A stretch of DNA of 64,000 nt from an uncultured Gammaproteobacteria bacterium (GCA_902628335.1 CACOMO010000001.1:109313-173312); one strand, 5' to 3'. Shown: positions 10,693 through 37,022, counted from the first letter of the stretch. Notes: generated from the sequence alone by a model not told the origin. Program-made: numbers and translations.

Positions 10693-11700
10693 CTAGCCTC
10701 CAATGTATGACATTTCAATCTTGTTCTCGCGATCATTTCCTATTCTGTGTGTTTTTCTGAGAACGGAATATTGATCTATTCTCTTAGACCATATATCTTG
10801 AATATCATTTTTTAATTTTAACTCACTAGAACTTGACCGCAATCTCTTTAACACATTATATCCATGTGTTGCAAACAAGCACGTGTAAAAAAATCCATCA
10901 GCTGATAATCTAGCTCTATTACAAGATCCGCAGAAAGGTCGCGTAATAGAGGAAATAAACCCAACTTTTGCACTTAAATTTTTAAGTTGCCATTTAGTAG
11001 ATGTCGAATTTTTTTCATCCACTAACTTAGTTAATGTATAATGTCTAGATATATCATTATATATACTTTCAGATGAGTAAACTTTTTCTAAATTCCATTC
11101 ATTGGTCTCCCCTACATCCATAAATTCTATAAATCTTATTTCTACATTCAGATTCTTAAACTTATTGATAATATCTAATATTTCTTGGGAATTAATGTTC
11201 TTCATAACAACAACATTGATTTTAGCAGATCCAAAAACATCAATTGCTATATATATTGCGTCAATAACTTTGCTGATATTTGAATGAGGATTTATTTTTC
11301 TATTAATTGAGCATTTAAGAGAATCAAGACTGATTGTAACACTATCTAACCCATTTTTTTTAAGCAGCTCTGCCTTGTTATAATTTAAAAGAGCCCCATT
11401 AGTTGTAAGTGCAACATGATCAATTCCCAAACCTTTTATTTTTCCAATTAAATTTTCTATATTTCTTCTAAGCAGAGGTTCTCCTCCTGTAAGTCTTATT
11501 TTCTTCAAGTTGAAATTCGTTAAAATTGAAATAAAAGATAATATTTCCTCAAAAGTGAGTAATTCAGATTTCCTAAGATACTTATAATCACTATTGAATA
11601 TATCTTTTGGCATACAATATGAACAGCGATAATTACATCTATCTGTGAGCGATATCCGAAGATATTCGAATGATCTTTTTAATTTATCATTTATCATCAC
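10693..11700 (-). CDS. moaA: GTP 3',8-cyclase (radical SAM)
   Basis: Radical-SAM motif CNYRCSYC near the N-terminus, a second C-terminal Cys cluster (CGSCNRARLSADG) and a terminal GG. Confidence 0.95.
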   Translation of the reverse strand: MMINDKLKRSFEYLRISLTDRCNYRCSYCMPKDIFNSDYKYLRKSELLTFEEILSFISILTNFNLKKIRLTGGEPLLRRNIENLIGKIKGLGIDHVALTTNGALLNYNKAELLKKNGLDSVTISLDSLKCSINRKINPHSNISKVIDAIYIAIDVFGSAKINVVVMKNINSQEILDIINKFKNLNVEIRFIEFMDVGETNEWNLEKVYSSESIYNDISRHYTLTKLVDEKNSTSTKWQLKNLSAKVGFISSITRPFCGSCNRARLSADGFFYTCLFATHGYNVLKRLRSSSSELKLKNDIQDIWSKRIDQYSVLRKTHRIGNDRENKIEMSYIGG

Positions 11701-12466
11701 ACACCTTACATTGCTTGTCTTTATTCAGTTTGATAATTCTAAAATCATTATTCTTTAAATCGATCGTTAGGAGTCTACTCTCCAATCGTTCGCCAATATC
11801 TAGAAGAATTTTTATGCACTCTGAAGCTTGCATAGATCCTACAACACCAGTTAAAGCTGCAAATACTCCGGAGTCAACACAAGCATTACTCTCTGATACA
11901 TTCTCATACAAGCAATTGTAACATGGTTGATCTGTGAGATCGTTACGGAAAACAATTATCTGTCCACTAAATTGTATAGCGGCCCCCATAATAAGTGGAA
12001 TTCTATTGTCCAGAGATATTTTATTTATTAGTGATCTCGTTTTAAAATTGTCAGTAGCATCAATGATGAGGTCTACATCATGAAGATAATTAACATCAGA
12101 GTTACTCGCTAATCGTTCGCTAATTGCGTTTATCTTCATATCGGAGTTAAGTTTCTGCATCTTTATTTTAGCTATATCTACTTTTTTCTTATCGAGATCA
12201 TCCATACTATAGAGTATTTGTCTCTGTAGATTAGTTACATCAATAGTATCATCATCTACAAGTGTAATTTGGCCAATCCCTGAAGATGCTAGATAGTAAG
12301 CAATAGGCGATCCAAGGCCACCCAAGCCAATTAACACAACATGCTTTTCCTTGAGCAAAGCTTGTCCCTCCACATCGATATCATCCAGCAGTATATGTTT
12401 ATTGAAACGAAGTAGCTCCTTATCTGTGAGTGGCGTATGTTTCTTAATTTTTATTTTTGTTCTCAT
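11687..12466 (-). CDS. moeB: Molybdopterin-synthase adenylyltransferase (ThiF/MoeB family)
   Basis: Nucleotide-binding motif GLGGLGSP plus CxxC pairs (CYNC, CKVC). Overlaps moaA by 14 nt. Confidence 0.85.
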   Translation of the reverse strand: MRTKIKIKKHTPLTDKELLRFNKHILLDDIDVEGQALLKEKHVVLIGLGGLGSPIAYYLASSGIGQITLVDDDTIDVTNLQRQILYSMDDLDKKKVDIAKIKMQKLNSDMKINAISERLASNSDVNYLHDVDLIIDATDNFKTRSLINKISLDNRIPLIMGAAIQFSGQIIVFRNDLTDQPCYNCLYENVSESNACVDSGVFAALTGVVGSMQASECIKILLDIGERLESRLLTIDLKNNDFRIIKLNKDKQCKVCDDK

Positions 12467-12746
12467 TAAATTTTTTTAGCTGCTCTTCGGTTGCGGGTTT
12501 TTGGTATTGTTTTTTGTACTCATCATATGGCATGCCGTATATATATTCACGAGCAGCATCATAATCGATCTCTTGACCTAGTTTTTTAGCCTCTTCAGAA
12601 TACCATTTAGATATACAATTTCTGCAAAAATTTGCTAAATTCATCAAATCTATATTCTGCACATTTGGATTATCTCTCAAGTGATTCAAGATTCTTTGAA
12701 ATGTTGCTGCCTCAATTTCAACCTTGTCATTATCTTTGATAGACAT
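12444..12746 (-). CDS. DUF1244-like small protein
   Basis: 100 aa. The FCRNCISKWY segment is typical of DUF1244. It is the first gene of the minus-strand Moco/argG operon. Confidence 0.6.
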   Translation of the reverse strand: MSIKDNDKVEIEAATFQRILNHLRDNPNVQNIDLMNLANFCRNCISKWYSEEAKKLGQEIDYDAAREYIYGMPYDEYKKQYQKPATEEQLKKFNENKNKN

Positions 12747-12815
12747 ATATTAACCTCCAAATAAATTTATATTATTTCAGTATATATAATCTCAAGGGCT
12801 TTTAAATAGATATGT

Positions 12816-13703
12816 CTAAGCTTTTTTAAAATCGCTTTGCGATAGTTTAATTCCGTAGATTACAACTAATAGACCTATAAGATAATTGATAAAAACTCCC
12901 TCATTGAGGAATATTACACCAAAGAAAATGGACCAAATTGGAATCAAGTAATTCATTATTGATATGAATGATGCACCGGATGTTTGAAGAATTTGAAAAT
13001 AGATGATAGTGGCGATAGCAGTGCAAAAAATACCTAGCATTAAAATACTGATCAGGTGAGGATAGGATATCTCGCTGTTGAGCGGTGTATCAAATGAAAA
13101 CAGATATATAAACATTATCACTGCAGAATATAGTATTGTTCCAGTCGATGCGTTGAGAGGATCAGTAACTTTATTCTTTTTTCCATAGACTGCAGAACAT
13201 GAATACAGTATCGCCCCACTCATGACCATCACCTCTGATAGTATATTTTCAGACACGCTGGGTAGTAGAAATATTTCTGGCATAATTAGAATAATAATTC
13301 CGAAAAAAGCAATTACGAAACCTACTATCTTTTTTTTCGTGAGAAATTCATCATCTAGAAAAATATGTGATAACAATATGGTAGATATTGGCATTGTAGC
13401 CATTAGTATTCCAGCTAGTGAGCTGTCAATGCCTATTTGACCATATGAGATCAGTAGGAAAGGTGCCACTATTCCTACAATACTCATAAAGCTATAATAT
13501 TTCCAGTCTTTTGCCTCTATAGTAATTGACCCATTTCTTATTAGTAGTATAAAAAAAAGGAGTAATGCTCCAATTATCAATCTACCAGCAACTATAATCT
13601 CTGGAGTATAAACTTCTAGGGAATATTTATTTAGAGTAAATGCTCCTCCCCATATCGCTGATAGAATAAGTAAAAGAATCCAATTAATTGTATATATATT
13701 CAT
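12816..13703 (-). CDS. EamA/DMT-family transporter
   Basis: 295 aa with about 10 TM segments in two EamA-like halves. Confidence 0.8.
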   Translation of the reverse strand: MNIYTINWILLLILSAIWGGAFTLNKYSLEVYTPEIIVAGRLIIGALLLFFILLIRNGSITIEAKDWKYYSFMSIVGIVAPFLLISYGQIGIDSSLAGILMATMPISTILLSHIFLDDEFLTKKKIVGFVIAFFGIIILIMPEIFLLPSVSENILSEVMVMSGAILYSCSAVYGKKNKVTDPLNASTGTILYSAVIMFIYLFSFDTPLNSEISYPHLISILMLGIFCTAIATIIYFQILQTSGASFISIMNYLIPIWSIFFGVIFLNEGVFINYLIGLLVVIYGIKLSQSDFKKA

Positions 13704-13748
13704 CTTGAGTTATTCTTAAAATTAATTTGATGTAGTATTTTAATATTT

Positions 13749-14408
13749 ATGAAGCTTTTATCAATAAATATATCGGAACCAAAAAAAATAATTTTTAATG
13801 GCAAAGAGCTTATCACAAGTATCTACAAGACGCCTGTTAATAAAGAGGTTGAAGTTGGGCAACTAGGAATAGAGGGGGATCGACAGGCTGATCTCCAGGT
13901 GCATGGCGGTTATGACAAAGCTGTATACGCTTACTCTCATACACATTATTCCCATTGGTCTGATATCATGAAAAAATCCTTCGGAGAATTTGGGTTAGTA
14001 GGAGAAAACCTTACTATAGATAACTTTGATGAGAACGACGTATTTATTGGCGATGAATATCAAATAGGTACAACACTCTTACAAATCTCACAACCAAGAA
14101 TACCTTGCTATAAAATCGGGATCAAAATGAACAGTAGAGAATTTCCAAAATTATTCTCACAAAGTGGTTTACTTGGATCATATATGAGAGTAAAAGAGAC
14201 AGGTAGTATTAATATAGGTGATTCAGTAGAGCTGTCCAAACGTGATGATAGTAGCATGTCTATTTTTGAAATATCTCAACTTCTATTTGTTGATCTGAAG
14301 AATATCGAGGGTATGAAAAGGGCAATTGGACTGAAATATCTATCAGAAGAAATAAAAGAGAAATTCAGGGAAAGACTCATGAAACTTGGAGATTTTTCAT
14401 CCCTCTGA
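13749..14408 (+). CDS. MOSC-domain protein (YiiM-like)
   Basis: 219 aa. Contains the HGGYDKAVYAY and QPRIPCYKIG segments characteristic of YiiM-type MOSC proteins. Confidence 0.8.
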   Translation: MKLLSINISEPKKIIFNGKELITSIYKTPVNKEVEVGQLGIEGDRQADLQVHGGYDKAVYAYSHTHYSHWSDIMKKSFGEFGLVGENLTIDNFDENDVFIGDEYQIGTTLLQISQPRIPCYKIGIKMNSREFPKLFSQSGLLGSYMRVKETGSINIGDSVELSKRDDSSMSIFEISQLLFVDLKNIEGMKRAIGLKYLSEEIKEKFRERLMKLGDFSSL

Positions 14409-14411
14409 ATT

Positions 14412-14600
14412 ATGAAAATATCAAACATAAAGGTTGTGGATGATGATGTAAATATTGTAGCATGTGTGGGAGATGCTGAAACAGGTGCGCATCCAAAAGT
14501 GTACCTCAACATCCGTGATGAAGATGGTAAAATTGAGTGTTATTATTGTGGAAAAACGTTTATATACAAGTCTAAAATGAGAAAAGGTAGATATGTTTGA
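14412..14600 (+). CDS. Zinc-finger (zf-CHCC-like) small protein
   Basis: 62 aa. The pattern HPKVYL...IECYYCGKTF resembles the zf-CHCC / NDUFS6-like domain. Confidence 0.55.
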   Translation: MKISNIKVVDDDVNIVACVGDAETGAHPKVYLNIRDEDGKIECYYCGKTFIYKSKMRKGRYV

Positions 14601-15048
14601 AAAAAGAAAGTCAATTAAACAAGTAGAGGAAGGTCAAGACCTCTGTCCAAAGTTTGATAATAATGGACTAATACCCGTTGTAACGACTGATTTTAAGACA
14701 GGGAATCTCCTAATGCATGCTTATATGAATAAAGAGGCATTGGAGCTCACTATTAAAAAGAAAGAGGCTTATTACTATAGTAGGAGTCGAAAATGTGTAT
14801 GGCATAAAGGTGGAACTAGTGGATTCATTCAAGAAGTTAAGTCAATCATGATAGACGATGACCAAGATTGTGTTTGGTTGAAAGTTGATGTAAAAGGTCA
14901 AGCTAGTTGCCATGTTGGCTATAACTCCTGTTTTTATAGAGTAGTTACAGTCGATAAGAATAAAATACGACTAGATTTTACTGAAAAAGAGAAAGTATTT
15001 GATCCAGATGAGGTTTATGGAGACGCACCTAATCCAACAATATTGTAA
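14593..15048 (+). CDS. hisI: Phosphoribosyl-AMP cyclohydrolase (monofunctional HisI)
   Basis: Contains YYYSRSRKCVWHKGGTSG and the DQDCVWLKVD...ASCHVGYNSCFY metal-binding Cys pattern. No HisE domain is fused. Confidence 0.88.
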   Translation: MFEKRKSIKQVEEGQDLCPKFDNNGLIPVVTTDFKTGNLLMHAYMNKEALELTIKKKEAYYYSRSRKCVWHKGGTSGFIQEVKSIMIDDDQDCVWLKVDVKGQASCHVGYNSCFYRVVTVDKNKIRLDFTEKEKVFDPDEVYGDAPNPTIL

Positions 15049-15053
15049 ACCAG

Positions 15054-15281
15054 TTATCTCACTTTTTCGCTGAAAAATCTCGCAATTATGCCCGTCAAAT
15101 AAAGATTGATTATCAAATATACTGGACCAAAAGCCATAGATACGTAAAAATAATATATTGAAGGTATCGGGCTGTAATTAGAAAAGTAACTGTAAGTAAG
15201 ATGAATAAATATCAAAAGTGGAGTAAGTATAAGAGCGCCCAATATCACATCAAACAAAATATTTCTCAATGAACTCATCAA
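15054..15281 (-). CDS. Hypothetical small membrane protein (2 TM)
   Basis: 75 aa hydrophobic ORF. No family recognised. It could be a chance ORF in AT-rich DNA. Confidence 0.3.
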   Translation of the reverse strand: MMSSLRNILFDVILGALILTPLLIFIHLTYSYFSNYSPIPSIYYFYVSMAFGPVYLIINLYLTGIIARFFSEKVR

Positions 15282-16141
15282 ACAAAAAACCTCATAATAT
15301 TAATATAACAAAAAAAGATGCTTGGCAAATAGTTTTGCAAGCAAAAAATCAACTTTCTCATAGAAAGAAGCAAAAAACGTATACGATAAAATATATTACT
15401 AATAAACATAACCTTATGTGCACATTTTCCATTATTAAAAGAAGATTGGTTAAAAAAAACTTCTCTTGTGAAGAACATATTGAAAGTATGATCAATATGT
15501 ATTTGAGATTAATCTTTGCTGATAGTACTCCTTATTTTATTGGTCATCTAGCACAGAGTCTAGATGGTTTCATAGCTACTAAAACTGGTGAATCAAAATA
15601 TATTAGTTCTAAAGAAAATCTGGAACACGTCCATATGCTACGGTGTATTAGCGATGTGATAATTGTAGGTTCAAAAACAGTACAGAAAGATGATCCAAAA
15701 CTAACAGCTAGATTAGTCAAAGGAAATAATCCAATGAGATTAATACTAGACAAAAAAAATGAATTAGACAATAAATATAATGTATTCTCCAATAAGGATG
15801 GCTTAGGATTTAAAATTATCTCATCTAAAATCAAAAATAATAATGATCATGTGTTTTCCCTTCCCCTCCAGAAAGGATATTTTAAGTTTAATGATCTAAA
15901 GAATTTATTACATAAATTAAATAAAAAGATTATTTTTGTTGAGGGTGGTGGATCATTATTATCTAGATTTTTTGATAGTGGTTTTTTAAATCAATTACAA
16001 ATTTGTATGTGTCCGATAATATTAGGGTCTGGTAAAAATAGCTTCCTTATAAAAGTACATAAAAATATTCCGGAATTAAATTATAGACAGGTCAAATATC
16101 ATAGAATGGGTCCTGATATCTTATGTGATATCACTTTCTAA
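15269..16141 (+). CDS. RibD C-terminal-domain (DHFR-like) reductase family protein
   Basis: Contains the GHLAQSLDGFIATKTGES motif typical of the RibD_C reductase fold, and VEGGGSLLSRF near the C-terminus. An N-terminal extension of about 85 aa is of unknown status. Internal Met candidates lie at 15488 and 15497. Confidence 0.7.
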   Translation: MNSSNKKPHNINITKKDAWQIVLQAKNQLSHRKKQKTYTIKYITNKHNLMCTFSIIKRRLVKKNFSCEEHIESMINMYLRLIFADSTPYFIGHLAQSLDGFIATKTGESKYISSKENLEHVHMLRCISDVIIVGSKTVQKDDPKLTARLVKGNNPMRLILDKKNELDNKYNVFSNKDGLGFKIISSKIKNNNDHVFSLPLQKGYFKFNDLKNLLHKLNKKIIFVEGGGSLLSRFFDSGFLNQLQICMCPIILGSGKNSFLIKVHKNIPELNYRQVKYHRMGPDILCDITF

Positions 16142-17015
16142 TTGATAAAAGAAAATATAGCCCTGGCAAAGAACAGAGAAGGTTTAGAATGCCGTACATT
16201 ATTGCAACGCTAATACTGGATGAAGCTGACAATCCTAACAAAAATGCAATCAATAAAGCTGTCGCCTCTCTGACTCCCCATCCACCAATGCTAACTGGTA
16301 ATGTCATAGAAAACAATATAATAGGAGTAAACACAAAGAATGAAAAATAATCTATAGAAAGACCTATAGCTTCCGCTGAAATTATATAAATTATAATATA
16401 AGAAAGTACTACAAAAAACGATATTATGGTGTGATTCCAAAAGATTATTCCTGAGAATATTCTTTTAAAATTAAGCATAATTTCATTAGAACGAATTTTA
16501 TTAAAGTAGATTTTTTTAATAATAAAATAAAATATCAAAATAGCTAATGTGACTGGTATAACAGTATAAAAAAATGCAAGATACTTTTCGTTGAAAAGGA
16601 AAAATAGTGTTAGTGAAAAAAGGAAGATAAAGAACATCATGATTTGTCCTGACAATCTCTCGAAAACAATGCCTTGTACTGATTTACTGAGGTTAATTAC
16701 CCTGTGAGTAGATTCACGAGCACAATAAGCTCTGTATATATCACCAGCAACTCCACCCGGTAGAACATTATTAATAAAGCTAGAGATATAATAAAATCTA
16801 AGGCAATAAAAAAAGTTCATCTCAGTGCCATTTTTAGATGAGATATACATCCATCGGTATGCAGATAAGATGTATTGAAAAAAACTTATTAACAAAACCA
16901 GTAAAATATATTGATAGTTTATTACACTGAGTGTTTTCTGTATATCCTTACCATATGTTGCAATGACGTAGTACAGTAAACCAAAAGAAAGTATATACTT
17001 TAAAATATTTTTCAT
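16131..17015 (-). CDS. Flippase-like membrane protein (lysyl-PG synthase TM-region / UPF0104 family)
   Basis: 294 aa with about 8 TM segments. Motifs LPGGVAGDIYRAY and GGWGVREA are typical of the MprF-N-terminal/UPF0104 family. Confidence 0.72.
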   Translation of the reverse strand: MKNILKYILSFGLLYYVIATYGKDIQKTLSVINYQYILLVLLISFFQYILSAYRWMYISSKNGTEMNFFYCLRFYYISSFINNVLPGGVAGDIYRAYCARESTHRVINLSKSVQGIVFERLSGQIMMFFIFLFSLTLFFLFNEKYLAFFYTVIPVTLAILIFYFIIKKIYFNKIRSNEIMLNFKRIFSGIIFWNHTIISFFVVLSYIIIYIISAEAIGLSIDYFSFFVFTPIILFSMTLPVSIGGWGVREATALLIAFLLGLSASSSISVAIMYGILNLLCSLPGLYFLLSIRK

Positions 17016-17023
17016 TTCACTAC

Positions 17024-17884
17024 TTATGTCTCAATAATAATATCATTGTGACCTACTCTAGTTTCAAGAGAGCCACTATTGATCAATTTTATTTTTGAAA
17101 TGTACCATTTTTCAAGTATTTTATTATCAGTATACTTATTTCTTTTCAGAGGTTTATATAAGGTCTCAAGGTATTTATGATGAAAGTTTTTGTTATCATC
17201 AGTATTAGATAATAACCTCCATGATGAATCATAAATTGTAATTTTGAATTTTTTTTTCTTTGATAGTTGTTTTACTTTATCGATACTTCTATAACCCAGT
17301 GATATATCACCTGCCTTGATACTCTGTTGCTCTCTATTAAATTCATTTACTATATATTTGTCATAAGAGTTTTTGTCATTCCAATTTATCTTACCGTTGA
17401 AACATAATGTCATAGCGATAACTTTGTCACATTTGATCTTATTGAACAGTTTTTTTAGGTAATTAAACGACAATAAATCTATTAATGCTGACATGCTTAA
17501 TACATCAAAGTTGTTTATTAAATTGATTGATAAACTTAGGTCTTTATTTAATGTTTTAAATCCAAAAGTTAAATTACTAACTGGATCCTCAACTTTGAAT
17601 TCTTTTTTTGATACTTTCTTTATTATGAGTTTTCTATTCTTGCAAAATCTTGAGGTGATCCTCTGAGTATTATTTAATAACCTTTGGTCATGATCAAGTA
17701 GCATCATATTCTCAAAAAATATATTGTTCGCCAAGCACCATCTACTGAAAGCACCAGTTCCTGCTCCAATATCAAGTATCCTATCGGATTGTCTAATAAA
17801 TTTTTTTAAATTTTTATTTCTGGATAAAATATCATACGGTTCCCTTAAGGCTAGCCATGTACTAGTAAAATGATCTTTTTTCAT
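17024..17884 (-). CDS. Class I SAM-dependent methyltransferase
   Basis: 286 aa with SAM motif I (ILDIGAGTGAFS). Confidence 0.75.
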   Translation of the reverse strand: MKKDHFTSTWLALREPYDILSRNKNLKKFIRQSDRILDIGAGTGAFSRWCLANNIFFENMMLLDHDQRLLNNTQRITSRFCKNRKLIIKKVSKKEFKVEDPVSNLTFGFKTLNKDLSLSINLINNFDVLSMSALIDLLSFNYLKKLFNKIKCDKVIAMTLCFNGKINWNDKNSYDKYIVNEFNREQQSIKAGDISLGYRSIDKVKQLSKKKKFKITIYDSSWRLLSNTDDNKNFHHKYLETLYKPLKRNKYTDNKILEKWYISKIKLINSGSLETRVGHNDIIIET

Positions 17885-18858
17885 AAGCTTTTTCTTATTT
17901 TTTTCGCTGCATCTGACCAGGTATAAAGTGTATTTTGACTTTTAACATCTACTGAATTGCGTGATAATTTTTCATTTATTTTTTTACTAATGTTGTCTAG
18001 GTTTTTAAGATCAACAAAATCAATAGAATAATTACTTAATACTTCTCGCAATACAGGGAGATCGGTTGTAATAATTTCAAGACCTGCAGCCGCACATTCT
18101 GCAATAGACATCCCAAAACCCTCATATTCAGTCAACGAAATAAAAAATTTGGATTTCTTTATCTCAGCTATCATCTGAGCAGGCTTCACACTACCCAAGA
18201 ATTTTATTCTATCCTTCATTTTATTTTTTATTATCAACTTTTTTAAATATTCATAATAGTTTCGATCCATATCATAATTACCAATTATAGTTAATGTCCA
18301 ATCCTCGGAAACTCTCTCAAGCACCTCAAATAAAATATGATATCCCTTTCTTGGGATGACATTACCAACTGATAAGATATTCTTTGATTCTTTATCAATC
18401 TGTTGGTTATAAAATCTTCTGTCTATACCTGGATATGCTACACAAATATCTTTATAAGTATCCAAATATTTCGATAGTACCTTTCTCATTGTTTTACTAA
18501 CCGTAATAAGTGATTCTGCATCGTTAAACGCTTTTCTTTCAGATAAATATAAGTTTATATTAGACATTTGATTATTTGATACTTCCATAGAGCATGGGTG
18601 ATGGATAAGTATATTTAACCTATTTGTTATTTTAATTTTAATTTTATTAGCTAGATAACCATCAAGGAGTATGTCTGATCTTTTTGGGATAATGTTAATT
18701 TTTTTATGCAATGATATTGTGCTTATGTTGTAGGGAACTCTCACTTCCTTTATTAGTACTCGATTTTTCTTTAAGTGTAGCAAAATATTTTTATCATATA
18801 AGGTGCCACCTGTTATGGAATTATCAAACTCAGGAATAATGAAGTATACTTCCCTCAC
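17881..18858 (-). CDS. Glycosyltransferase family 4 (GT-B)
   Basis: 325 aa with the C-terminal EGFGMSIAECAAAGLEIITTD (E-x7-E region) typical of GT4. Confidence 0.85.
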   Translation of the reverse strand: MREVYFIIPEFDNSITGGTLYDKNILLHLKKNRVLIKEVRVPYNISTISLHKKINIIPKRSDILLDGYLANKIKIKITNRLNILIHHPCSMEVSNNQMSNINLYLSERKAFNDAESLITVSKTMRKVLSKYLDTYKDICVAYPGIDRRFYNQQIDKESKNILSVGNVIPRKGYHILFEVLERVSEDWTLTIIGNYDMDRNYYEYLKKLIIKNKMKDRIKFLGSVKPAQMIAEIKKSKFFISLTEYEGFGMSIAECAAAGLEIITTDLPVLREVLSNYSIDFVDLKNLDNISKKINEKLSRNSVDVKSQNTLYTWSDAAKKIRKSL

Positions 18859-19250
18859 TTAAATAATTTTTCAAAAGATGCTGAAGCTACGTGGGATTCG
18901 TTCAGTATTATTTTAACAGAGTGCAGATGAGATACTCCTTGTGAATGATCCTTAAGTTTAGAAATTATCAAGTTTACAATAAATTCAGCTAGGAATTCTG
19001 TTGTGGTGAGATCTTCTCTGAACTCTGATTCTTCATCTAAGTTTCTAAAATTAAGTTTATCCAAGCACTCTTTGAGAATTTGTGTTGCTAAATCTATATC
19101 AATTACAATATTATTTTCAAGTAAATTTCTCGCAGATATAATTAAATCTACTACATACGTAGCCCCATGAAGATTTTGTGCTCTGCCGAAAGACGGATGT
19201 CTTAAACTATGAGCAATAAATACATGATCTCTTACTTTGACGGTATACAT
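18855..19250 (-). CDS. 6-pyruvoyl-tetrahydropterin synthase/QueD-like (COG0720) protein with a degenerate active site
   Basis: 131 aa. FIAHSL...AQNLHGATYVV aligns to the FEAAHRL...CGRLHGHSF region of QueD. The catalytic Cys and the second His of HGH are both Ala here. Confidence 0.7.
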   Translation of the reverse strand: MYTVKVRDHVFIAHSLRHPSFGRAQNLHGATYVVDLIISARNLLENNIVIDIDLATQILKECLDKLNFRNLDEESEFREDLTTTEFLAEFIVNLIISKLKDHSQGVSHLHSVKIILNESHVASASFEKLFK

Positions 19251-19254
19251 AGAT

Positions 19255-20232
19255 TTAATATTTTACAACCTTACAAAGAAAATTGTTATGGTTTTTTTTA
19301 TCAGAGAAGAATTTATCTAAAATATTAAAATTAATATGCTTCTTTTCTATTAGATGATCTAGGTCACTATCGGTGTTTGATAGTATGTCTAGTGCAATTT
19401 TTCTGCGATCTTGATTGGTTATATCACTACGAGCTGGCGATATTTTTGATACTTGAGACATAATCAGTCTAGCCCTCTTTGAAAAAAAATTCTCCCCTAG
19501 TGCTATTTCTGATTTCTTATCTCCATACCAACTTAGGATACATATAGTAGAATTGACATTAATATTATTCTTTAATGAATTCAGAACTTTATGATCCCCT
19601 GTACATTCGTAAATAAATCTCGCATCAAATTTTTTTGGGATCGTATCAAGAAATTTCAAACCTAACTTTTTCGCAATGTTACTCTTTGATGGATCTTTAT
19701 CCACCACAAACAAACTTACACCTGGAACTTTACTGACAAGGTAGGCTGTAAGCAATCCAACAATCCCAGCTCCAATCACTAGAATTCGATCACCAGCACT
19801 CGGTAATGTGTCCCAAATTGCATTTATGGCTGTTTCCAGGTTAGGGATCAATAAACAACGGGTTAGTGGTATTTTTTTTGGGATGACAAGCACTTCATTA
19901 CGATCGATCTTATAGTAATCTTGATGCGGATATAACGAAAAGATATTGCTACCCAAATATGACTTATCTCCATCAATAACTCTGCCAACATTTATATATC
20001 CATATTTAATGTCATTGCCAAAGTCTCCCTCTTGATGAGGGCACTTCATTAGATTTTTTTGACTTTTTGGAACTTTCCCTGAGTAGACTAATTTTTCTGT
20101 GCCATAACTAATACCAGAAAAAAGTGTTTTTATAACTAACTCAGTACTACTGATCGATGATATTTCACCAGATTTAAAATAACCTTTATTTTTTTTGTTT
20201 ATCCAGTATGATTTTGTTTTATATATTTTCAT
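19255..20232 (-). CDS. Medium-chain dehydrogenase/reductase (ADH-like), apparently zinc-independent
   Basis: 325 aa. Has a Rossmann motif (ILVIGAGIVGLLTA) and a GroES-like N-terminal half. I did not see the canonical GHE Zn-ligand motif. Confidence 0.78.
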   Translation of the reverse strand: MKIYKTKSYWINKKNKGYFKSGEISSISSTELVIKTLFSGISYGTEKLVYSGKVPKSQKNLMKCPHQEGDFGNDIKYGYINVGRVIDGDKSYLGSNIFSLYPHQDYYKIDRNEVLVIPKKIPLTRCLLIPNLETAINAIWDTLPSAGDRILVIGAGIVGLLTAYLVSKVPGVSLFVVDKDPSKSNIAKKLGLKFLDTIPKKFDARFIYECTGDHKVLNSLKNNINVNSTICILSWYGDKKSEIALGENFFSKRARLIMSQVSKISPARSDITNQDRRKIALDILSNTDSDLDHLIEKKHINFNILDKFFSDKKNHNNFLCKVVKY

Positions 20233-20261
20233 ATGCTTATAGAATACTATTATAAATATTT

Positions 20262-20966
20262 ATGATAAGTATACTATTAAAACTTTTGTCTTTATCCATA
20301 ATTACCTCTACTGTGATTATTTCAATTATGATTGATGTAGAAATATCAAGAGAAATTATTACTTATAATATTTTTCTGCAAATATTTTCAGCGTGTTTAG
20401 TCTCCATGAGTATGTATAAGTTCAATTTACGAAATGTAAATATTGCAAATTATATTACATATTCTCGATTAGTCATTATGATCACATTACTAGTTTTAGT
20501 AATATTTAAAGATGATATTTATAATATATATTATTCATTATATTTCACGTTCTTTTCTTTTTTAGTGTTTATTATGGATTGGTTAGATGGTTATGTTGCT
20601 AGAAAATATAGACAAATTACAGAGTTTGGGTTCTTGTTTGACCAAGAAGTAGATAATCTTTTCTTATTCATACTTGTGCTATCAATCACAATCTCTAATA
20701 ATGAATTATACTTTCTATGGATTATTCCATTATTCAGATATATCTTTCTCCTTATGAAGCAGATATTTGTTTGGATGAGATCAGAGCTCTATGAGAGTTT
20801 TAGACGAAAATTTATATGTGTAGTTACTACTTTTACATTGATTATATGTAATCTTGAAATTTTATCATTTTTTTTAATAGAACTTCTTAGTATAATTAGT
20901 GTATCAATCATAGTACTTTCGTTTATGAAAGATATTTTATGGTTATACAGGAGGAATAATGCTTAG
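20262..20966 (+). CDS. CDP-alcohol phosphatidyltransferase family protein
   Basis: Carries the complete D-x2-DG-x2-AR-x8-G-x3-D-x3-D signature (DWLDGYVARKYRQITEFGFLFDQEVD). Alternative starts are M49 (20406) and M51 (20412), just before the NIANYITYSR segment. Confidence 0.85.
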   Translation: MISILLKLLSLSIITSTVIISIMIDVEISREIITYNIFLQIFSACLVSMSMYKFNLRNVNIANYITYSRLVIMITLLVLVIFKDDIYNIYYSLYFTFFSFLVFIMDWLDGYVARKYRQITEFGFLFDQEVDNLFLFILVLSITISNNELYFLWIIPLFRYIFLLMKQIFVWMRSELYESFRRKFICVVTTFTLIICNLEILSFFLIELLSIISVSIIVLSFMKDILWLYRRNNA

Positions 20967-21543
20967 ATTAACTACATTCTTAATATTAATATTTACATCT
21001 CTACAACTACTCGCCGATGAAGATAAATACATAATAGATGATTCTCATTTTAGCCTTGGTTTTTTAGTGGAGCATGCAGGTTACTCCAAAACTCTTGGTT
21101 TATTCAAACATATTGAGGGGGATTTTATTTATGACGAATCCTCAAATAGTGTTAAAAATTTATCAATTACCGTTAATACTGATAGTGTTTTCACTAATCA
21201 TGACAAAAGAGACTCTCATTTAAGAAGCCCAGATTTTCTAAACACGGATCAATATCCGACGATGACTTTTGAGGTCAAGGAATATGCGTTAAATGACACG
21301 CCTGGGCAAATTATGGGTAATTTGACGCTTCTGGGTATTACAAAACCAATCAATCTTGATTTTAATATAAATAAAATAGCTCAATATCCGTTCAGGATAG
21401 GTCTTAGTAAACCCATGGTAATGGGCGTGTCTGCGAGTACAAGTTTTAAAAGATCCGACTATGGGATGAGTTATGGTTTAGAAAAAGAACTTGTAGGGGA
21501 TGAGATTGAGTTAATAATTGAGTTTGAAGCTCGGCGACAATAA
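20959..21543 (+). CDS. YceI-family periplasmic lipid/polyisoprenoid-binding protein
   Basis: 194 aa with a signal peptide. Contains HFSLGFLVEH, the RDSHLRSPDFLNTDQYPTMTF motif and a YceI-type C-terminus (IELIIEFEA). Overlaps the CAPT gene by 8 nt. Confidence 0.85.
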   Translation: MLRLTTFLILIFTSLQLLADEDKYIIDDSHFSLGFLVEHAGYSKTLGLFKHIEGDFIYDESSNSVKNLSITVNTDSVFTNHDKRDSHLRSPDFLNTDQYPTMTFEVKEYALNDTPGQIMGNLTLLGITKPINLDFNINKIAQYPFRIGLSKPMVMGVSASTSFKRSDYGMSYGLEKELVGDEIELIIEFEARRQ

Positions 21544-21544
21544 C

Positions 21545-22213
21545 ATGCGCCTGAAAGAAATACAACTCAACTCTAAAGAGTTAAGAGACTATATTGATCT
21601 TGTTGGATACGAAAAAGATCAAACGCTGAGTGATCTTAGGGAGGCTACCAAATCACTCGGTGATGCATCTATAATGCAGATAGGATCTAGTCAAGGTAAA
21701 CTCATTGAAATCATATGTAGATTAGGAAAATTTAGCAAGTGTATAGAAATAGGAGTATTCACTGGATATAGTTCTATTTGTATTGCCAAAGGTATGGTCG
21801 ATCATGGTAAATTATATGCTATTGATCCATCAGAACAATATACAAAAATAGCACGTGATTTTTGGAAGAAAGCTGGTGTTGATAATAAAATAGAACTAAT
21901 TCTAAATAAGGGTAATGAGGCCCTTGATAATTTATTAGGTGAAGGTCAAAAAGAAGAATATGATCTCGTGTTTATCGATGCAGATAAAGCTAACTATATT
22001 GATTATTATGAAAAATCGATGGTATTGATCAAACCAGGGGGTCTGGTAATTATAGATAATACTGTTTGGAAGGGCAAGGTACTTGATCATAGTGATCAAT
22101 CTGAAAGTACATCTACTATTAGGAAACTTAATGATATAATAGCGAGTGATGAACGCGTAAGACATTGTATGTTAACAATGTATGATGGGATGACAATATG
22201 TCAGAAAAAATAA
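21545..22213 (+). CDS. Family-3 (CCoAOMT/TrmR-like) SAM-dependent O-methyltransferase
   Basis: Contains IEIGVFTGYSS, DLVFIDADKANY and GGLVIIDNTVWKG (metal-binding D/D/N pattern). I chose the ATG at 21545, 1 nt after the yceI stop. The track start at 21518 lies inside yceI. Confidence 0.85.
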   Translation: MRLKEIQLNSKELRDYIDLVGYEKDQTLSDLREATKSLGDASIMQIGSSQGKLIEIICRLGKFSKCIEIGVFTGYSSICIAKGMVDHGKLYAIDPSEQYTKIARDFWKKAGVDNKIELILNKGNEALDNLLGEGQKEEYDLVFIDADKANYIDYYEKSMVLIKPGGLVIIDNTVWKGKVLDHSDQSESTSTIRKLNDIIASDERVRHCMLTMYDGMTICQKK

Positions 22214-22896
22214 TAGATGTATTGAGTTTTTACAAATTCATAAAACTGCAATCATTAGAAGTTTTAAAAAAAGAAATTTGGCGTTTTATGTCAGATAGAA
22301 ATATTCAAGGTACTATAATACTGTCACCTGAAGGGATAAATATAAATATATGTGGTACCAAGGATAATATTAAAGAGTCAAAAAAATTTCTCCTCAAAAG
22401 ATTGAAAATTAGTAAGGTTTTTTTTAACGAAGATAAGATTAATGGAATGGCTTTCACTAAGTTGAAAGTTAAGATTAAAAGAGAAATTATTAAACTAGGT
22501 TTTCATTTACAGCCGGACCTGATACTAGATCATGAGCATATTGATTCATCAAGATGGGATAAATTGATGTTAAATGATACAATTATCATTGATACAAGGA
22601 ATAAATTTGAGTATCTAATGGGTAGTTTTAGAAATTCAATTAATCTAGATTTATACAATTTTAGTGACCTAGAAAATAAAATTAACACGCTCTCGTTGCC
22701 TGCAAAATCTAAAGATATAGGAATATTCTGTACAGGTGGCATAAGGTGTGAAAAAGCTTCACTGGTTTTAAGAAAACTAGGATATAAAAAAATCTATCAA
22801 CTGCATGGTGGCATTATCAATTATCTAAGAGAAAAGCCAAACAGTAAAAACTGGCAAGGCGAGTGTTTTGTTTTCGATGATAGAATTACTTATTAG
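22198..22896 (+). CDS. trhO: Rhodanese-domain tRNA U34 hydroxylase TrhO (YceA/YbfQ, UPF0176), short form
   Basis: Has a UPF0176 N-terminal domain plus a rhodanese domain with an active-site loop (FCTGGIRCEKAS). Overlaps the O-methyltransferase gene by 16 nt. At 232 aa it lacks the C-terminal extension of E. coli YceA. Confidence 0.78.
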   Translation: MSEKIIDVLSFYKFIKLQSLEVLKKEIWRFMSDRNIQGTIILSPEGININICGTKDNIKESKKFLLKRLKISKVFFNEDKINGMAFTKLKVKIKREIIKLGFHLQPDLILDHEHIDSSRWDKLMLNDTIIIDTRNKFEYLMGSFRNSINLDLYNFSDLENKINTLSLPAKSKDIGIFCTGGIRCEKASLVLRKLGYKKIYQLHGGIINYLREKPNSKNWQGECFVFDDRITY

Positions 22897-22902
22897 AAAT
22901 AA

Positions 22903-23889
22903 TTAATTAATCAATATTTTATCTACTAAAATCTCGGTATTATCGTAATTTTTAAGGCTTATCAAGTCAGACTGGTAAACAGTTTTCATCTCAGTGCTAA
23001 CAAAATCCTCATTACTAGTTTTTATGAGAAGAGTAACCTCTGTAGGTAATTGATCAGTGTTATTTATCATTATGTTATTATCTGATATGAGAATCTCCGA
23101 AACTATTTGTGCACTTTTCATCCGTTTGACGGCAAATGGAGCTTGTTTATCTGATCGTAGTATAAAAAAAATATTTTTAGATTGCTGAAGAGTTGAAATA
23201 ACATCCTCGGATAATTTTATCTTCACCATATGAGTGATTTGTGTGTTTTTGTTTAGGTCATCTAGAGCTTTCTGGTATGAATCTTTGTTAACAATATTTG
23301 GATTTTCAATAACTTTGCTAAGAACAAGTTTAGTTGTTTCAACATCATTAATTTCAAATAAGTAATTAAGATACATATTAAAAGCATTCACATCGTTATA
23401 GTTAGTTATAATGAGTTTTTCGTATGTATTAATTATCTCGAGCTTATTTTTTTTTGCGTCAATTTTTCTAAGTACAAATATATAATCTAATAATAAATCG
23501 GGATCATTACTGTTCATCGATATAGCTTTCTTAAAGAATTGTGCAGACTGAGAAAATTCATTAATTAACATATAGGACTTACCTAGCATTATATTTCCTT
23601 TCAGATTGTTTGGCTCATTTCTTACCTGCTCCTCTAGAATTGGAATATTATTTTTTATGATTTTTATGTTTTCTCTTATTTTCATATTCCTTTCGGATAA
23701 TTTAGAATATTCATCTTTAAGGTGAATGCCGGAGTCTATCTGGAAAACAACAATTAATCCGGCAGTAATGACAAAGAGAGGTAGGACTAACCTTAAATTT
23801 TTCAAGTTGATTTGAGATTTCTCTCCATAGTTTTTATATAAATAGAAAATATATATGATGCTAATTAGGGAGAATATAACAAAAATCAT
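22903..23889 (-). CDS. ccmI: Cytochrome c maturation TPR protein CcmI (CycH-like)
   Basis: Has an N-terminal TM segment, a second TM, and TPR-like repeats (GKSYMLINEFSQSAQFFKKAISMNSNDPD). The start is set to ATG 23889, overlapping the ccmH stop (TAATG). The track's 22 extra residues lie inside ccmH. Confidence 0.68.
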   Translation of the reverse strand: MIFVIFSLISIIYIFYLYKNYGEKSQINLKNLRLVLPLFVITAGLIVVFQIDSGIHLKDEYSKLSERNMKIRENIKIIKNNIPILEEQVRNEPNNLKGNIMLGKSYMLINEFSQSAQFFKKAISMNSNDPDLLLDYIFVLRKIDAKKNKLEIINTYEKLIITNYNDVNAFNMYLNYLFEINDVETTKLVLSKVIENPNIVNKDSYQKALDDLNKNTQITHMVKIKLSEDVISTLQQSKNIFFILRSDKQAPFAVKRMKSAQIVSEILISDNNIMINNTDQLPTEVTLLIKTSNEDFVSTEMKTVYQSDLISLKNYDNTEILVDKILIN

Positions 23890-24296
23890 TATCTCACTCC
23901 CTTCTTGAATAATAGAAATGTAATAATTATCATAAACAATAATGGTCCAAACCATAAGACTATATTCTGCTTATTCACTGGAGGGTCATATAAGATAAAA
24001 CTACTGTATCTATCAGCCATAAATTGTTTTATTTCGCTTTCACTTTTTCCATCTTTGATCATTTCTTTTATTTTGTTTCGCAAATCAACTGCCAGAGGTG
24101 CCTCTGATTCAGCTATATTTTGATTTTGGCATACCATACACCTGACTTCTTTAATTAAGGAGTTGTATAGTGACTTTTCATCTAACTGTAAATCAGAGAT
24201 TGTTATCGATGAATATGAGAGTATTACGATACTAAAACTTATTTTGATTAGCTTTCTGGATTTTTGGAAGAATATTGTTTTTAAATATTTGCTCAT
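23889..24296 (-). CDS. ccmH: Cytochrome c-type biogenesis protein CcmH
   Basis: Contains the RCMVCQNQ (CxxC) motif. ATG 24296 is preceded by TAGGTG at 6-nt spacing. The track begins at GTG 24305. It overlaps the ccmG 3' end by about 65 nt. Confidence 0.85.
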   Translation of the reverse strand: MSKYLKTIFFQKSRKLIKISFSIVILSYSSITISDLQLDEKSLYNSLIKEVRCMVCQNQNIAESEAPLAVDLRNKIKEMIKDGKSESEIKQFMADRYSSFILYDPPVNKQNIVLWFGPLLFMIIITFLLFKKGVR

Positions 24297-27540: not shown

Positions 27541-27783
27541 ATGTCTGATTATTTCATATGCTCTATTTGTGAAAAGGAATTCCCAGATAGCTTATCTAAG
27601 GATTCCTCTGCATATACGAAAAATAAATCACTAAGCTCAATGGGTAACTCGAATAAGTCTCAAAATCTTTGTTGTGTAGGTTGCTTTTTTACATATGTTG
27701 CTCCGATCAAAAAAGACGAGTCGGTGAAAAAAAAGCAAAATAACAAAATAAAAAATAACCTTAAGGTAATCAAGGGGCGTTAG
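27541..27783 (+). CDS. Hypothetical Cys-rich (CxxC...CCxxC) Lys-rich small protein
   Basis: 80-aa ORF: MSDYFICSICEKEF...CCVGCF... followed by a basic tail. No SD sequence. Its last 10 nt overlap the 5' end of tRNA-Lys. Coding status is uncertain. Confidence 0.3.
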   Translation: MSDYFICSICEKEFPDSLSKDSSAYTKNKSLSSMGNSNKSQNLCCVGCFFTYVAPIKKDESVKKKQNNKIKNNLKVIKGR

Positions 27784-27846
27784 CTCAGTTGGTAGAGCAG
27801 TGGACTCTTAATCCATTGGTCAAAGGTTCGAACCCTTTACGCCCTA
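27774..27846 (+). tRNA. tRNA-Lys (anticodon CUU)
   Basis: Hand-folded cloverleaf: GGGGCGT TA GCTC AGTTGGTA GAGC A GTGGA CTCTTAA TCCAT TGGTC AAAGG TTCGAAC CCTTT ACGCCCT A. It is close to E. coli tRNA-Lys apart from the anticodon. CCA is not encoded. Confidence 0.9.
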
Positions 27847-33505: not shown

Positions 33506-33579
33506 TGGTCATGGGTGGACTTGAACCACCGACCGCAGCGTTATGAGTGCTGTGCTCTAACCAACTGAGCTACATGACC
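33506..33579 (-). tRNA. tRNA-Met (anticodon CAU), elongator-like
   Basis: The reverse complement folds as GGTCATG TA GCTC AGTTGGTTA GAGC A CAGCA CTCATAA CGCTG CGGTC GGTGG TTCAAGT CCACC CATGACC A. G1-C72 is paired, and the D-arm and anticodon loop resemble E. coli elongator tRNA-Met. tRNA-Ile2 (lysidine) cannot be excluded. Confidence 0.85.
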
Positions 33580-36950: not shown

Positions 36951-37022
36951 CTGGGGTGGAAGGATTCGAACCTCCGAATGACGGGATCAAAACCCGCTGC
37001 CTTACCGCTTGGCGACACCCCA
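36951..37022 (-). tRNA. tRNA-Gln (anticodon UUG)
   Basis: The reverse complement is TGGGGTG TC GCCAAGCGGTAAGGCA GCGGG TTTTGAT CCCGT CATTC GGAGG TTCGAAT CCTTC CACCCCA G. It is nearly collinear with E. coli tRNA-Gln. Confidence 0.9.

Follow-up and report, generated by a model that had tools for sequence, protein, structure and literature searches.

A widespread PTPS-IV gene cluster in an uncultured gammaproteobacterium and its possible role in attaching a GTP-derived head group to membrane lipid

The gene cluster and its described relatives

The PTPS-IV proteins form a subfamily of COG0720 that is defined by an FGPAQ signature (PMC5445326, PMC5041015), and a gene-neighbourhood network has linked them to PF01872 (RibD_C) and PF00925 (AGeNNT 2017, PMC5445326). 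PF00925 is termed GTP cyclohydrolase I/FolE2 in PMC5445326, and because Pfam names this family GTP_cyclohydro2, the reported FolE2 neighbour of PTPS-IV should be read as GTP cyclohydrolase II (GCH II). The PTPS-IV papers make no mention of MDR, GT4, CDP-alcohol phosphatidyltransferase (CAPT), UPF0104 or LtaS-like partners. Our study describes a cluster that combines a PTPS-IV gene with several of these partners in a stretch of 64,000 nucleotides, hereafter the window, from an uncultured Gammaproteobacteria bacterium (GCA_902628335.1 CACOMO010000001.1:109313-173312). The copy in the window is a streamlined member of a widespread cluster to which the Streptomyces genes SCO6650 and SCO6655 also belong; the lipid module is present and the GTP-opening enzymes are absent. 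The cluster probably encodes a conserved pathway whose substrate is derived from GTP and is of the 2-amino-4-oxo-pyrimidine or pterin type, since relatives carry GCH II and creatininase-family genes, the RibD_C reductase has kin in riboflavin synthesis and both ring-binding glutamates of the PTPS-IV protein are kept, which together favour a GTP-derived over a polyol head group. The fuller proposal, in which this head group would be decorated with a sugar, methylated and then joined to a membrane phospholipid in the lineage of the window, is given a little under an even chance.

Earlier papers have already dealt with parts of the cluster, namely PTPS-IV, SCO6650 (3D7J) and SCO6655. Studies from 2006-2008 reportedly presented the crystal structure of SCO6650 and described SCO6655 as a GCH II with an altered product, and are said to have given no physiological role. 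In that work, attributed to Spoonamore et al. 2006/2008, SCO6655 is said to turn GTP into the formylated pyrimidine FAPy, and SCO6650 is said to have neither zinc nor PTPS activity. The two Streptomyces loci in our dataset (L066/L067) hold an orthologous gene set in the order CAPT on the minus strand, then MDR, PTPS-IV, GT4, a methyltransferase-like open reading frame (ORF), LPG_synthase_TM, a creatininase-family gene on the minus strand and GCH II. At the switch position, where E. coli RibA and every other cluster copy carry Tyr, this GCH II, which we take to be SCO6655, carries Met. Compared with the SCO6650 neighbourhood, the window lacks GCH II and creatininase genes but carries RibD_C and YceI. 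Literature searches found no functional study of the gene set and no described link to membrane-lipid enzymes, and searches of NCBIfam, the PDB and PADLOC likewise gave no match to a characterised pathway, as an earlier reading of the window (the sequence-only reading) had held.

Five genes of the window are packed on the minus strand as one operon. The first encodes a BchC-like, NAD-dependent dehydrogenase of the MDR superfamily (19255-20232), recognized by motifs and sub-threshold profiles, and is followed by the PTPS-like protein, a T-fold protein of the PTPS-IV subfamily (18855-19250; Pfam PTPS and a 3D7J profile match), a GT4 glycosyltransferase with a GTG start (17881-18858; Pfam Glycos_transf_1), a probable class-I S-adenosylmethionine-dependent methyltransferase (17024-17884; sub-threshold Pfam matches and an ILDIGAGTG motif) and, as the last gene, a UPF0104/MprF-N-type flippase-like membrane protein (16131-17015; Pfam LPG_synthase_TM). 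According to the ORF list, 4-nucleotide overlaps join the PTPS-like gene to GT4 and GT4 to the methyltransferase, and gaps of 4 and 8 nucleotides separate MDR from the PTPS-like gene and the methyltransferase from UPF0104. On the plus strand, the gene for a RibD_C-type reductase (15269-16141; ORF list and Pfam RibD_C) converges on the UPF0104 gene and overlaps it by 11 nucleotides. The CAPT gene (20262-20966, plus strand; Pfam CDP-OH_P_transf) diverges from the MDR gene across a spacer of 29 nucleotides (20233-20261), read directly from the sequence; promoters for the MDR operon and for CAPT must sit within coding regions. The start of a further plus-strand gene, for a YceI-like periplasmic lipid/polyisoprenoid-binding protein with a signal-peptide-like N-terminus (20959-21543; Pfam YceI), overlaps the CAPT stop by 8 nucleotides. 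All seven gene coordinates of the sequence-only reading, together with the spacings that it gave for the five-gene run and for both junctions with the plus-strand genes, were reproduced. Its proposal of a single operon and functional unit agrees with this anatomy and with conservation of the gene set in at least five phyla. Its family calls stood above the Pfam gathering scores for RibD_C, LPG_synthase_TM, Glycos_transf_1, PTPS and CDP-OH_P_transf, whereas the dehydrogenase and the methyltransferase could be placed at superfamily level only.

One genome per GTDB species was scanned with conserved PTPS-like peptides as probes, which gave 59 loci, to which the two Streptomyces loci were added. 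Every ORF was compared with the window proteins and with family hidden Markov models (HMMs), and the counts below cover 8 kb to either side of the PTPS-like gene. In high-GC loci, clustering of ORFs taken from stop to stop gave many antisense shadow families, which were discarded. The PTPS-like protein has thousands of relatives, the nearest of which come from marine gammaproteobacterial metagenome-assembled genomes (MAGs). We distinguished 23 close loci, from SAR86-like MAGs, from 44 distant loci outside this group, and the gene set, whose recurrence the sequence-only reading had named as a check and its absence from related genomes as a refutation, co-occurred in both far beyond chance. The distant loci span at least five phyla. 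They belong to Gammaproteobacteria (among them Spiribacter and Hydrocarboniphaga), Alphaproteobacteria (among them Thalassobaculum, Inquilinus and Rhodospirillaceae), Betaproteobacteria (Hydrogenophaga), Acidobacteriota, Gemmatimonadota and Actinomycetota (Streptomyces, Pseudonocardia, Amycolatopsis and Nocardioides).

Among the 44 distant loci, MDR was found in 43, GT4 in 41, RibD_C in 32 and the methyltransferase, detected by the family HMM, in 30, where it occupied the same position after GT4. MDR directly preceded PTPS-IV in 41 loci and GT4 directly followed it in 39; these three soluble proteins, MDR–PTPS-IV–GT4, make up the invariant core. CAPT was present in 23 distant loci and, upon inspection of the coordinates, was divergent to MDR in 22 of them. 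UPF0104 was present in 13, including those of Streptomyces, Pseudonocardia, Spiribacter and Hydrocarboniphaga, and in all SAR86-like loci. YceI, a probable accessory gene of the cluster, lay beside CAPT or MDR in eight distant loci (Alpha-, Beta- and Gammaproteobacteria) and was also seen in those SAR86-like loci whose contigs extend to that side. The distant loci additionally revealed three families that the window does not encode, namely GCH II (20/44), a creatininase-family protein (18/44) and a membrane LtaS/sulfatase-like protein (18/44; Actinomycetota, Proteobacteria and Acidobacteriota). At least one membrane-type partner was found in 29 of the distant loci. In the SAR86-like MAGs the entire surrounding region is syntenic too (ccm genes, HisI, MOSC and Moa genes), and close relatives alone therefore cannot tell function from inheritance. 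In the distant loci the HisI, O-methyltransferase and rhodanese flanks are gone in every case, yet the cluster genes remain, some of them in a different order, which argues that their adjacency reflects function rather than inheritance.

Some loci depart from the compact order of the core. An LpqE-like/PCuAC gene lies between MDR and PTPS-IV in two marine MAG contigs (L004/L005, at L004:9510-9968, and L006, at L006:1156-1614), and an ORF that appears HipA-like by eye occupies the same place in Hydrocarboniphaga effusa (L058:8224-9573). Two proteins, P0299 and P0335, are apparent fusions of the C-terminal part of MDR with PTPS-IV and of PTPS-IV with Glycos_transf_1; these are consistent with the core trio and could be gene-calling artefacts on overlapping genes.

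Soluble enzymes and a probable connection to GTP

The PTPS-like protein of the window scored above the gathering threshold of Pfam PTPS (69.6 bits, 2.9e-19). Its family profile matched the structure 3D7J ('Uncharacterized protein SCO6650', Streptomyces coelicolor) over the full length at 1.9e-36, compared to 7e-4 (about 1e-3) for canonical PTPS, and the window protein is 45 % identical to a Streptomyces SCO6650-type protein. The segment FGRAQNLHGATY agrees with the PTPS-IV signature, which reads FGRAQ in the window, FGPAK or FGPAQ in relatives and FGPAQ in SCO6650. Residues were compared by alignment to E. coli QueD, using a sequence that we take to be correct and whose numbering agrees with published residues. 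The zinc-ligand positions His14 and His28 are retained and invariant, but the third member of the set (H16, H31 and H33 in QueD) is replaced, with Ala30 in place of His33; this Ala is nearly invariant, being Val in 1 of 15 relatives. The catalytic triad is also replaced, QueD Cys27 by Ala24 and Asp70-His71 by Asn67-Phe68 (the His position being Phe/Tyr68), and the motif at the catalytic Cys reads AQNLHGA, compared to the CxxxHGH, CxxxxxHGH or ExxHGH that constitute the catalytic motifs of the PTPS-I/II/III types (PMC5041015). PTPS or QueD chemistry is not possible for the window protein, because Cys, Asp, His and the third zinc ligand have all been replaced. The ring-anchoring Glu85 (TTTEF) and Glu118 (NESH), which align with QueD E86 and E110, are invariant. 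Judged by these residues, the protein is a predicted ring-binding T-fold protein and not a PTPS or QueD enzyme. Four relatives (P0242, P0246, P0248 and P0253; 375-855 residues) carry three tandem PTPS-IV-like domains each, the longer ones with a further stretch of approximately 450 residues without a Pfam match, and may represent covalently linked T-fold trimers.

The RibD_C reductase of the window matched its Pfam family above the gathering score (117.8 bits, 7e-34) and has no deaminase domain. Its best solved relatives are the archaeal/fungal-type 2,5-diamino-6-ribosylamino-4(3H)-pyrimidinone 5'-phosphate reductases (6p8c, 6e-18; 2azn, 2e-17), and the SLDG, DxPxLTxR and EGG motifs are invariant among the cluster relatives, reading SLDG, DDPKLTAR and VEGGG in the window. 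The protein nevertheless fell below every NCBIfam riboflavin equivalog cutoff (ribD_Cterm 120 vs 150, eubact_ribD 112 vs 156 and rib_reduct_arch 91 vs 186), and there is no riboflavin operon context, with no ribH, ribE or ribB near the gene. As a separate observation, approximately 66-85 extra N-terminal residues (15269-15520) had no Pfam match, and the first 66 had no aligned counterpart in the relatives, whose sequences were HMM-trimmed; this extension could be the remnant of a lost deaminase domain or the result of a mis-called start.

A connection of the cluster to GTP was suggested by the relatives, where GCH II (Pfam GTP_cyclohydro2, 3e-57) and creatininase-family genes (Pfam Creatininase, 7.9e-66) lie inside it, and the RibD_C and PF00925 neighbourhoods reported for PTPS-IV were reproduced in the distant loci. 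The creatininase-family enzyme is possibly a formamidase. Experiments on rhizobial riboflavin synthesis have established that the creatininase-family protein BrbF removes the formyl group of 2-amino-5-formylamino-6-ribosylamino-4(3H)-pyrimidinone 5'-phosphate to give the diamino compound, and ArfB carries out the same deformylation in archaea (PMC9478397). The early archaeal, fungal and rhizobial riboflavin steps (GCH II or ArfA, ArfB/BrbF and ArfC/Rib7) draw on the same three families in the same logical order, in which GTP ring opening is followed by creatininase-fold deformylation and by ribosylamino reduction before deamination. Unlike riboflavin synthesis, the cluster has no deaminase, lumazine synthase or riboflavin synthase, and its intermediates would pass instead to MDR, PTPS-IV and GT4. 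The window itself has RibD_C next to the operon and no GCH II in its 64 kb. The sequence-only reading had taken the lack of a GTP cyclohydrolase as an argument against a pterin link, which is accurate for the window but not for the cluster at large, given the GCH II genes of the distant loci.

Two of the three remaining soluble enzymes, the dehydrogenase and the methyltransferase, are less closely defined by their families, and no specific NCBIfam family scored above its cutoff for any cluster protein, with generic matches only. The dehydrogenase had a sub-threshold Pfam match (Glu_dehyd_C, 29.5 bits vs a cutoff of 34.9) and a likeness to BchC (TIGR01202, 49.6 bits, 3e-13, cutoff 291) that is confined to the N-terminal GISxGTE region, and its family profile aligned with solved MDRs over residues ~106-240 only, which is the Rossmann half. 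Its GISxGTE, YPHQ, ETAxNAxWD and GAGxVG motifs and Asp178 are invariant or nearly so, and the catalytic-zinc Cys of the GxCGTD motif is replaced by an invariant Ser42, the motif reading GIS(Y/R)GTE. The methyltransferase gave sub-threshold Pfam matches only (Methyltransf_23/12, about 18 bits) with a visible ILDIGAGTG motif, and its Streptomyces counterpart matched Methyltransf_25. The GT4 protein (Glycos_transf_1, 85.7 bits, 3.5e-24) is a retaining glycosyltransferase of the GT-B fold with an invariant EX7E motif (E246-x7-E254). Its family profile was nearest to sucrose-phosphate synthase (6kih, 3.5e-38) and MshA (6e-30), whose acceptors are phosphorylated polyols or sugars, followed by PimB' (4e-24), BshA and PimA (5e-18), and also detected the solved tetrahydrobiopterin glucosyltransferase 9v0l at 4e-12. 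The pterin glycoside pathways (BGluT/PgtA) similarly have a GT4-type enzyme beside a PTPS-family gene and a reductase. They differ in using GTP cyclohydrolase I and an active PTPS-II, whereas in the cluster the PTPS triad is gone and the linked cyclohydrolase is of type II.

The membrane side and the proposed product of the pathway

The CAPT of the window scored 59.7 bits against CDP-OH_P_transf (cutoff 22; 5.5e-16). Its catalytic motif is intact (DWLDGYVARKYRQITEFGFLFDQEVD, i.e. D106xxD109G110xxARx8G123x3D127xE129xD131), and D106, D109, G110, G123, D127 and D131 are invariant in 14 relatives, which bears out the complete signature described by the sequence-only reading. The protein fell below the equivalog cutoffs for pgsA (43.2 vs 109.1), ClsA (35.7 vs 240) and PIPSynth (18 vs 170), and the PDB held no close solved relative, with PssA, CPT1, PgsA and AF2299 all at 1e-6 to 1e-4. 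These comparisons indicate that the CAPT is a distinct, cluster-specific subfamily and not PgsA. The UPF0104 protein (294 residues) matched LPG_synthase_TM (128.5 bits, 4.8e-37) and the TIGR00374 flippase-like domain (54.5 bits vs 43.2) and has no aminoacyl-phosphatidylglycerol synthase domain (bifunc_MprF, 17.8 bits vs a cutoff of 600). The same UPF0104/LPG_synthase_TM domain is encoded beside a phospholipid head-group enzyme in MprF and in E. coli ClsB–YbhN, the latter presumably within a ybhP-clsB-ybhN operon; compared to MprF, the window protein stands alone without the C-terminal synthase domain, and its flippase activity is presumed. The YceI protein matched its Pfam family at 1.2e-38. 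The LtaS-like family of the relatives (e.g. L025:7208-9238(-), L058:4850-6478(+), L050:5859-7439(-) and L056:13044-13964(+)) has ~520-550 residues, with an N-terminal transmembrane block and a C-terminal sulfatase/alkaline-phosphatase-type domain, an architecture like that of LtaS and EptA. An MFS transporter was considered as a conserved alternative exporter and rejected, as it occupied the CAPT position in the Thalassobaculum fulvum locus only.

A membrane or envelope destination of the product is plausible because CAPT keeps its divergent position so consistently and because UPF0104, LtaS-like and YceI genes recur with the core. On this basis we infer the following route, in which every enzymatic step is deduced from the genes. 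GCH II would open GTP, by means of a housekeeping enzyme in the window organism and of a cluster-encoded copy in many relatives, and in some relatives the creatininase-family enzyme, as a possible formamidase, would act next to give 2,5-diamino-6-ribosylamino-4(3H)-pyrimidinone 5'-phosphate. The deaminase-less RibD_C would reduce the ribosyl to a ribityl chain with the 2-amino group kept, and the zinc-less BchC-like MDR would oxidize a side-chain hydroxyl. PTPS-IV would hold the 2-amino-4-oxo ring and catalyse tautomerization or ring closure, possibly to a neopterin-like pterin. In one attractive chemistry, C2' would be oxidized and the ring then closed onto the 5-amino group to yield a neopterin-like dihydropterin phosphate, the GTP cyclohydrolase I reaction being in effect carried out in separate steps. 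GT4 would then attach a sugar and the methyltransferase would methylate the product. In the lineage of the window CAPT would link a head-group hydroxyl to phosphatidate from CDP-diacylglycerol, the predicted flippase UPF0104 would move the lipid to the periplasmic leaflet and YceI may bind it there, while in relatives with an LtaS-like enzyme the phospho-head group may pass on to an envelope acceptor.

Several observations weigh against this route. GCH II, creatininase and LtaS-like genes were found nowhere in the 64-kb window, so that the link to GTP there rests on orthology, and the cluster includes no phosphatase or cytidylyltransferase. The Streptomyces cluster lacks RibD_C, and the ribityl step is therefore not universal. 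In 17 of the 44 distant loci, such as the Thalassobaculum group, the 8 kb on either side of the core contain no CAPT, flippase or LtaS-like gene, and in 15 of the 44 YceI is absent as well; the core product can exist without a lipid step, or the membrane genes lie elsewhere in those genomes, and the lipid step may be lineage-specific. Some CAPT enzymes join two soluble alcohols, as DIPP synthase does, and a CAPT alone is no proof of a lipid. A role of PTPS-IV in archaeal F420 synthesis, from unpublished work cited by Zallot et al. 2016, does not readily fit the gene set, as Cof genes are missing from the cluster and all the organisms that carry it here are bacteria.

The recurring CAPT, UPF0104, LtaS-like and YceI partners nonetheless turn a set of orphan pterin-like enzymes into a testable hypothesis, namely that a membrane lipid or an envelope component carries a head group made from GTP. 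If true, this would represent new head-group chemistry for bacterial phospholipids, a second metabolic fate for early riboflavin-pathway intermediates and a lipid that may be abundant in AT-rich, uncultured gammaproteobacteria of the sea. We only tentatively extend the proposal to a new phospholipid class with a glycosylated, methylated GTP-derived ribitylaminopyrimidine or pterin head group, occurring from Streptomyces to surface-ocean gammaproteobacteria; such a class would account for what PTPS-IV/SCO6650 and the FAPy-forming SCO6655 do. Equally speculative is the suggestion that, on the outer face of the cytoplasmic membrane, the lipid might display an anchored chromophore or redox group resembling a pterin or a flavin precursor.

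The alternative that survives best, to which we assign a modest but appreciable probability, is a soluble end product, i.e. a glycosylated and methylated GTP-derived pterin or pyrimidine acting as a cofactor, UV screen or secreted signal in the manner of cyanobacterial or Chlorobium pterin glycosides. CAPT, UPF0104 and YceI would then, with the same modest probability, either aid export or have a membrane role that is associated with the pathway but separate from it. In favour of this alternative, the invariant core is soluble, 17 distant loci have no CAPT, flippase or LtaS-like gene nearby, and the GT4 profile matches 9v0l and the small-molecule GT4 enzymes MshA and BshA. It accounts less well for a CAPT whose divergent placement is kept across lineages as far apart as SAR86-like MAGs and Streptomyces (22/23), or for the recurrence of three membrane/lipid-handling families and a periplasmic YceI with the core in several phyla, and we know of no CAPT or UPF0104 protein that exports soluble metabolites. 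Even a soluble product would imply a new pterin- or pyrimidine-glycoside pathway.

It is rather unlikely that the phosphatidyl-linked compound is instead a lipid-bound donor, from which an LtaS/EptA/OpgB-like enzyme transfers the phospho-head group to an envelope polymer. The acceptors would be lipopolysaccharide or lipooligosaccharide, glucans or teichoic-acid-like polymers, and the end product, at the same low probability, would be a decorated envelope and not a bulk lipid. LtaS, EptA and OpgB use phosphatidylglycerol or phosphatidylethanolamine in transfers of this kind, and 18 of the 44 distant loci have a gene for a membrane protein of the alkaline-phosphatase/sulfatase superfamily next to the cluster. 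However, such a gene was found neither in the 64-kb window nor in any of the 23 SAR86-like loci, and the LtaS-like family itself matches Pfam Sulfatase only sub-threshold or marginally (19-27 bits vs a cutoff of 25) and has no NCBIfam model.

Less likely again, and indeed improbable, is a head group that has no relation to GTP, a generic polyol or sugar of, for example, ribitol or cyclitol type, which would be phosphatidyl-linked, glycosylated and flipped in the manner of phosphatidylinositol (PI) and its mannosides (PIM). The pairing of CAPT with GT4 does parallel PI/PIM synthesis (PgsA1, the PI synthase, with PimA) and mycothiol MshA; the closest kin of the cluster GT4 attach a sugar to phosphorylated cyclitols or sugars (MshA, PimB' and PimA), with PimA and PimB' among its PDB matches. 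MDR enzymes also commonly act on polyols, and the window is without a GTP cyclohydrolase. Unlike PI/PIM synthesis, the cluster has no inositol-phosphate synthase, and the alcohol predicted for it is a GTP-derived heterocycle with a polyol chain. The GCH II and creatininase genes within the relatives' clusters, the homology of RibD_C to ribosylaminopyrimidine reductases and the purine/pterin-anchoring glutamates of the T-fold protein all speak against a generic alcohol, and the polyol- or sugar-like head group proposed by the sequence-only reading is probably not of that generic kind. Accidental adjacency, or inherited synteny without shared function, would suit the SAR86-like MAGs with their syntenic surroundings but is highly improbable when the flanks vanish in 44 of 44 distant loci and the cluster genes persist in at least five phyla.

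Genomic context and minor observations

The G+C content of the cluster region is ~30 %, the same as in the remainder of the window, and there is therefore no sign of a foreign island. Promoter and terminator scans were uninformative in DNA this AT-rich (70 promoter-like sites vs 55.7±7.6 in shuffles). Rfam searches of the window and of seven distant loci detected no riboswitch from which a ligand class might have been read, and their only matches in the window were three tRNA genes (27774-27846, 33506-33579 and 36951-37022). An anti-phage defence system was considered and rejected, as PADLOC gave no match for the eight cluster proteins.

A stand-alone HisI gene (phosphoribosyl-AMP cyclohydrolase only; 14593-15048) lies on the plus strand, 220 nucleotides upstream of and on the same strand as the RibD_C gene. 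Its product scored 150 bits against an NCBIfam equivalog cutoff of 126, and the gene occupies this place in all close relatives and in no distant locus. Together with the O-methyltransferase (21518-22213) and rhodanese/UPF0176 (22198-22896) genes on the other side, it was rejected as a cluster member, these genes being part of the SAR86-like synteny only (0/44 distant loci). Just upstream lie ThiF/MoeB-like, DUF1244, EamA and MOSC genes (window 11687-14408), which continue in relatives with MoaA, MoaD and MoaE (L001:16857-19696). These Moa-type genes belong to a second GTP-to-pterin pathway, whose linkage to the cluster was seen only in SAR86-like MAGs, and MoaA/D/E with MoeB were dismissed as a pterin link to the cluster, being conserved in close relatives only. 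A CcmH/CycH-like ORF (22903-23955, minus strand) is 350 residues long as called, compared to 208-215 residues in the relatives' orthologues, and its true start is probably further downstream.

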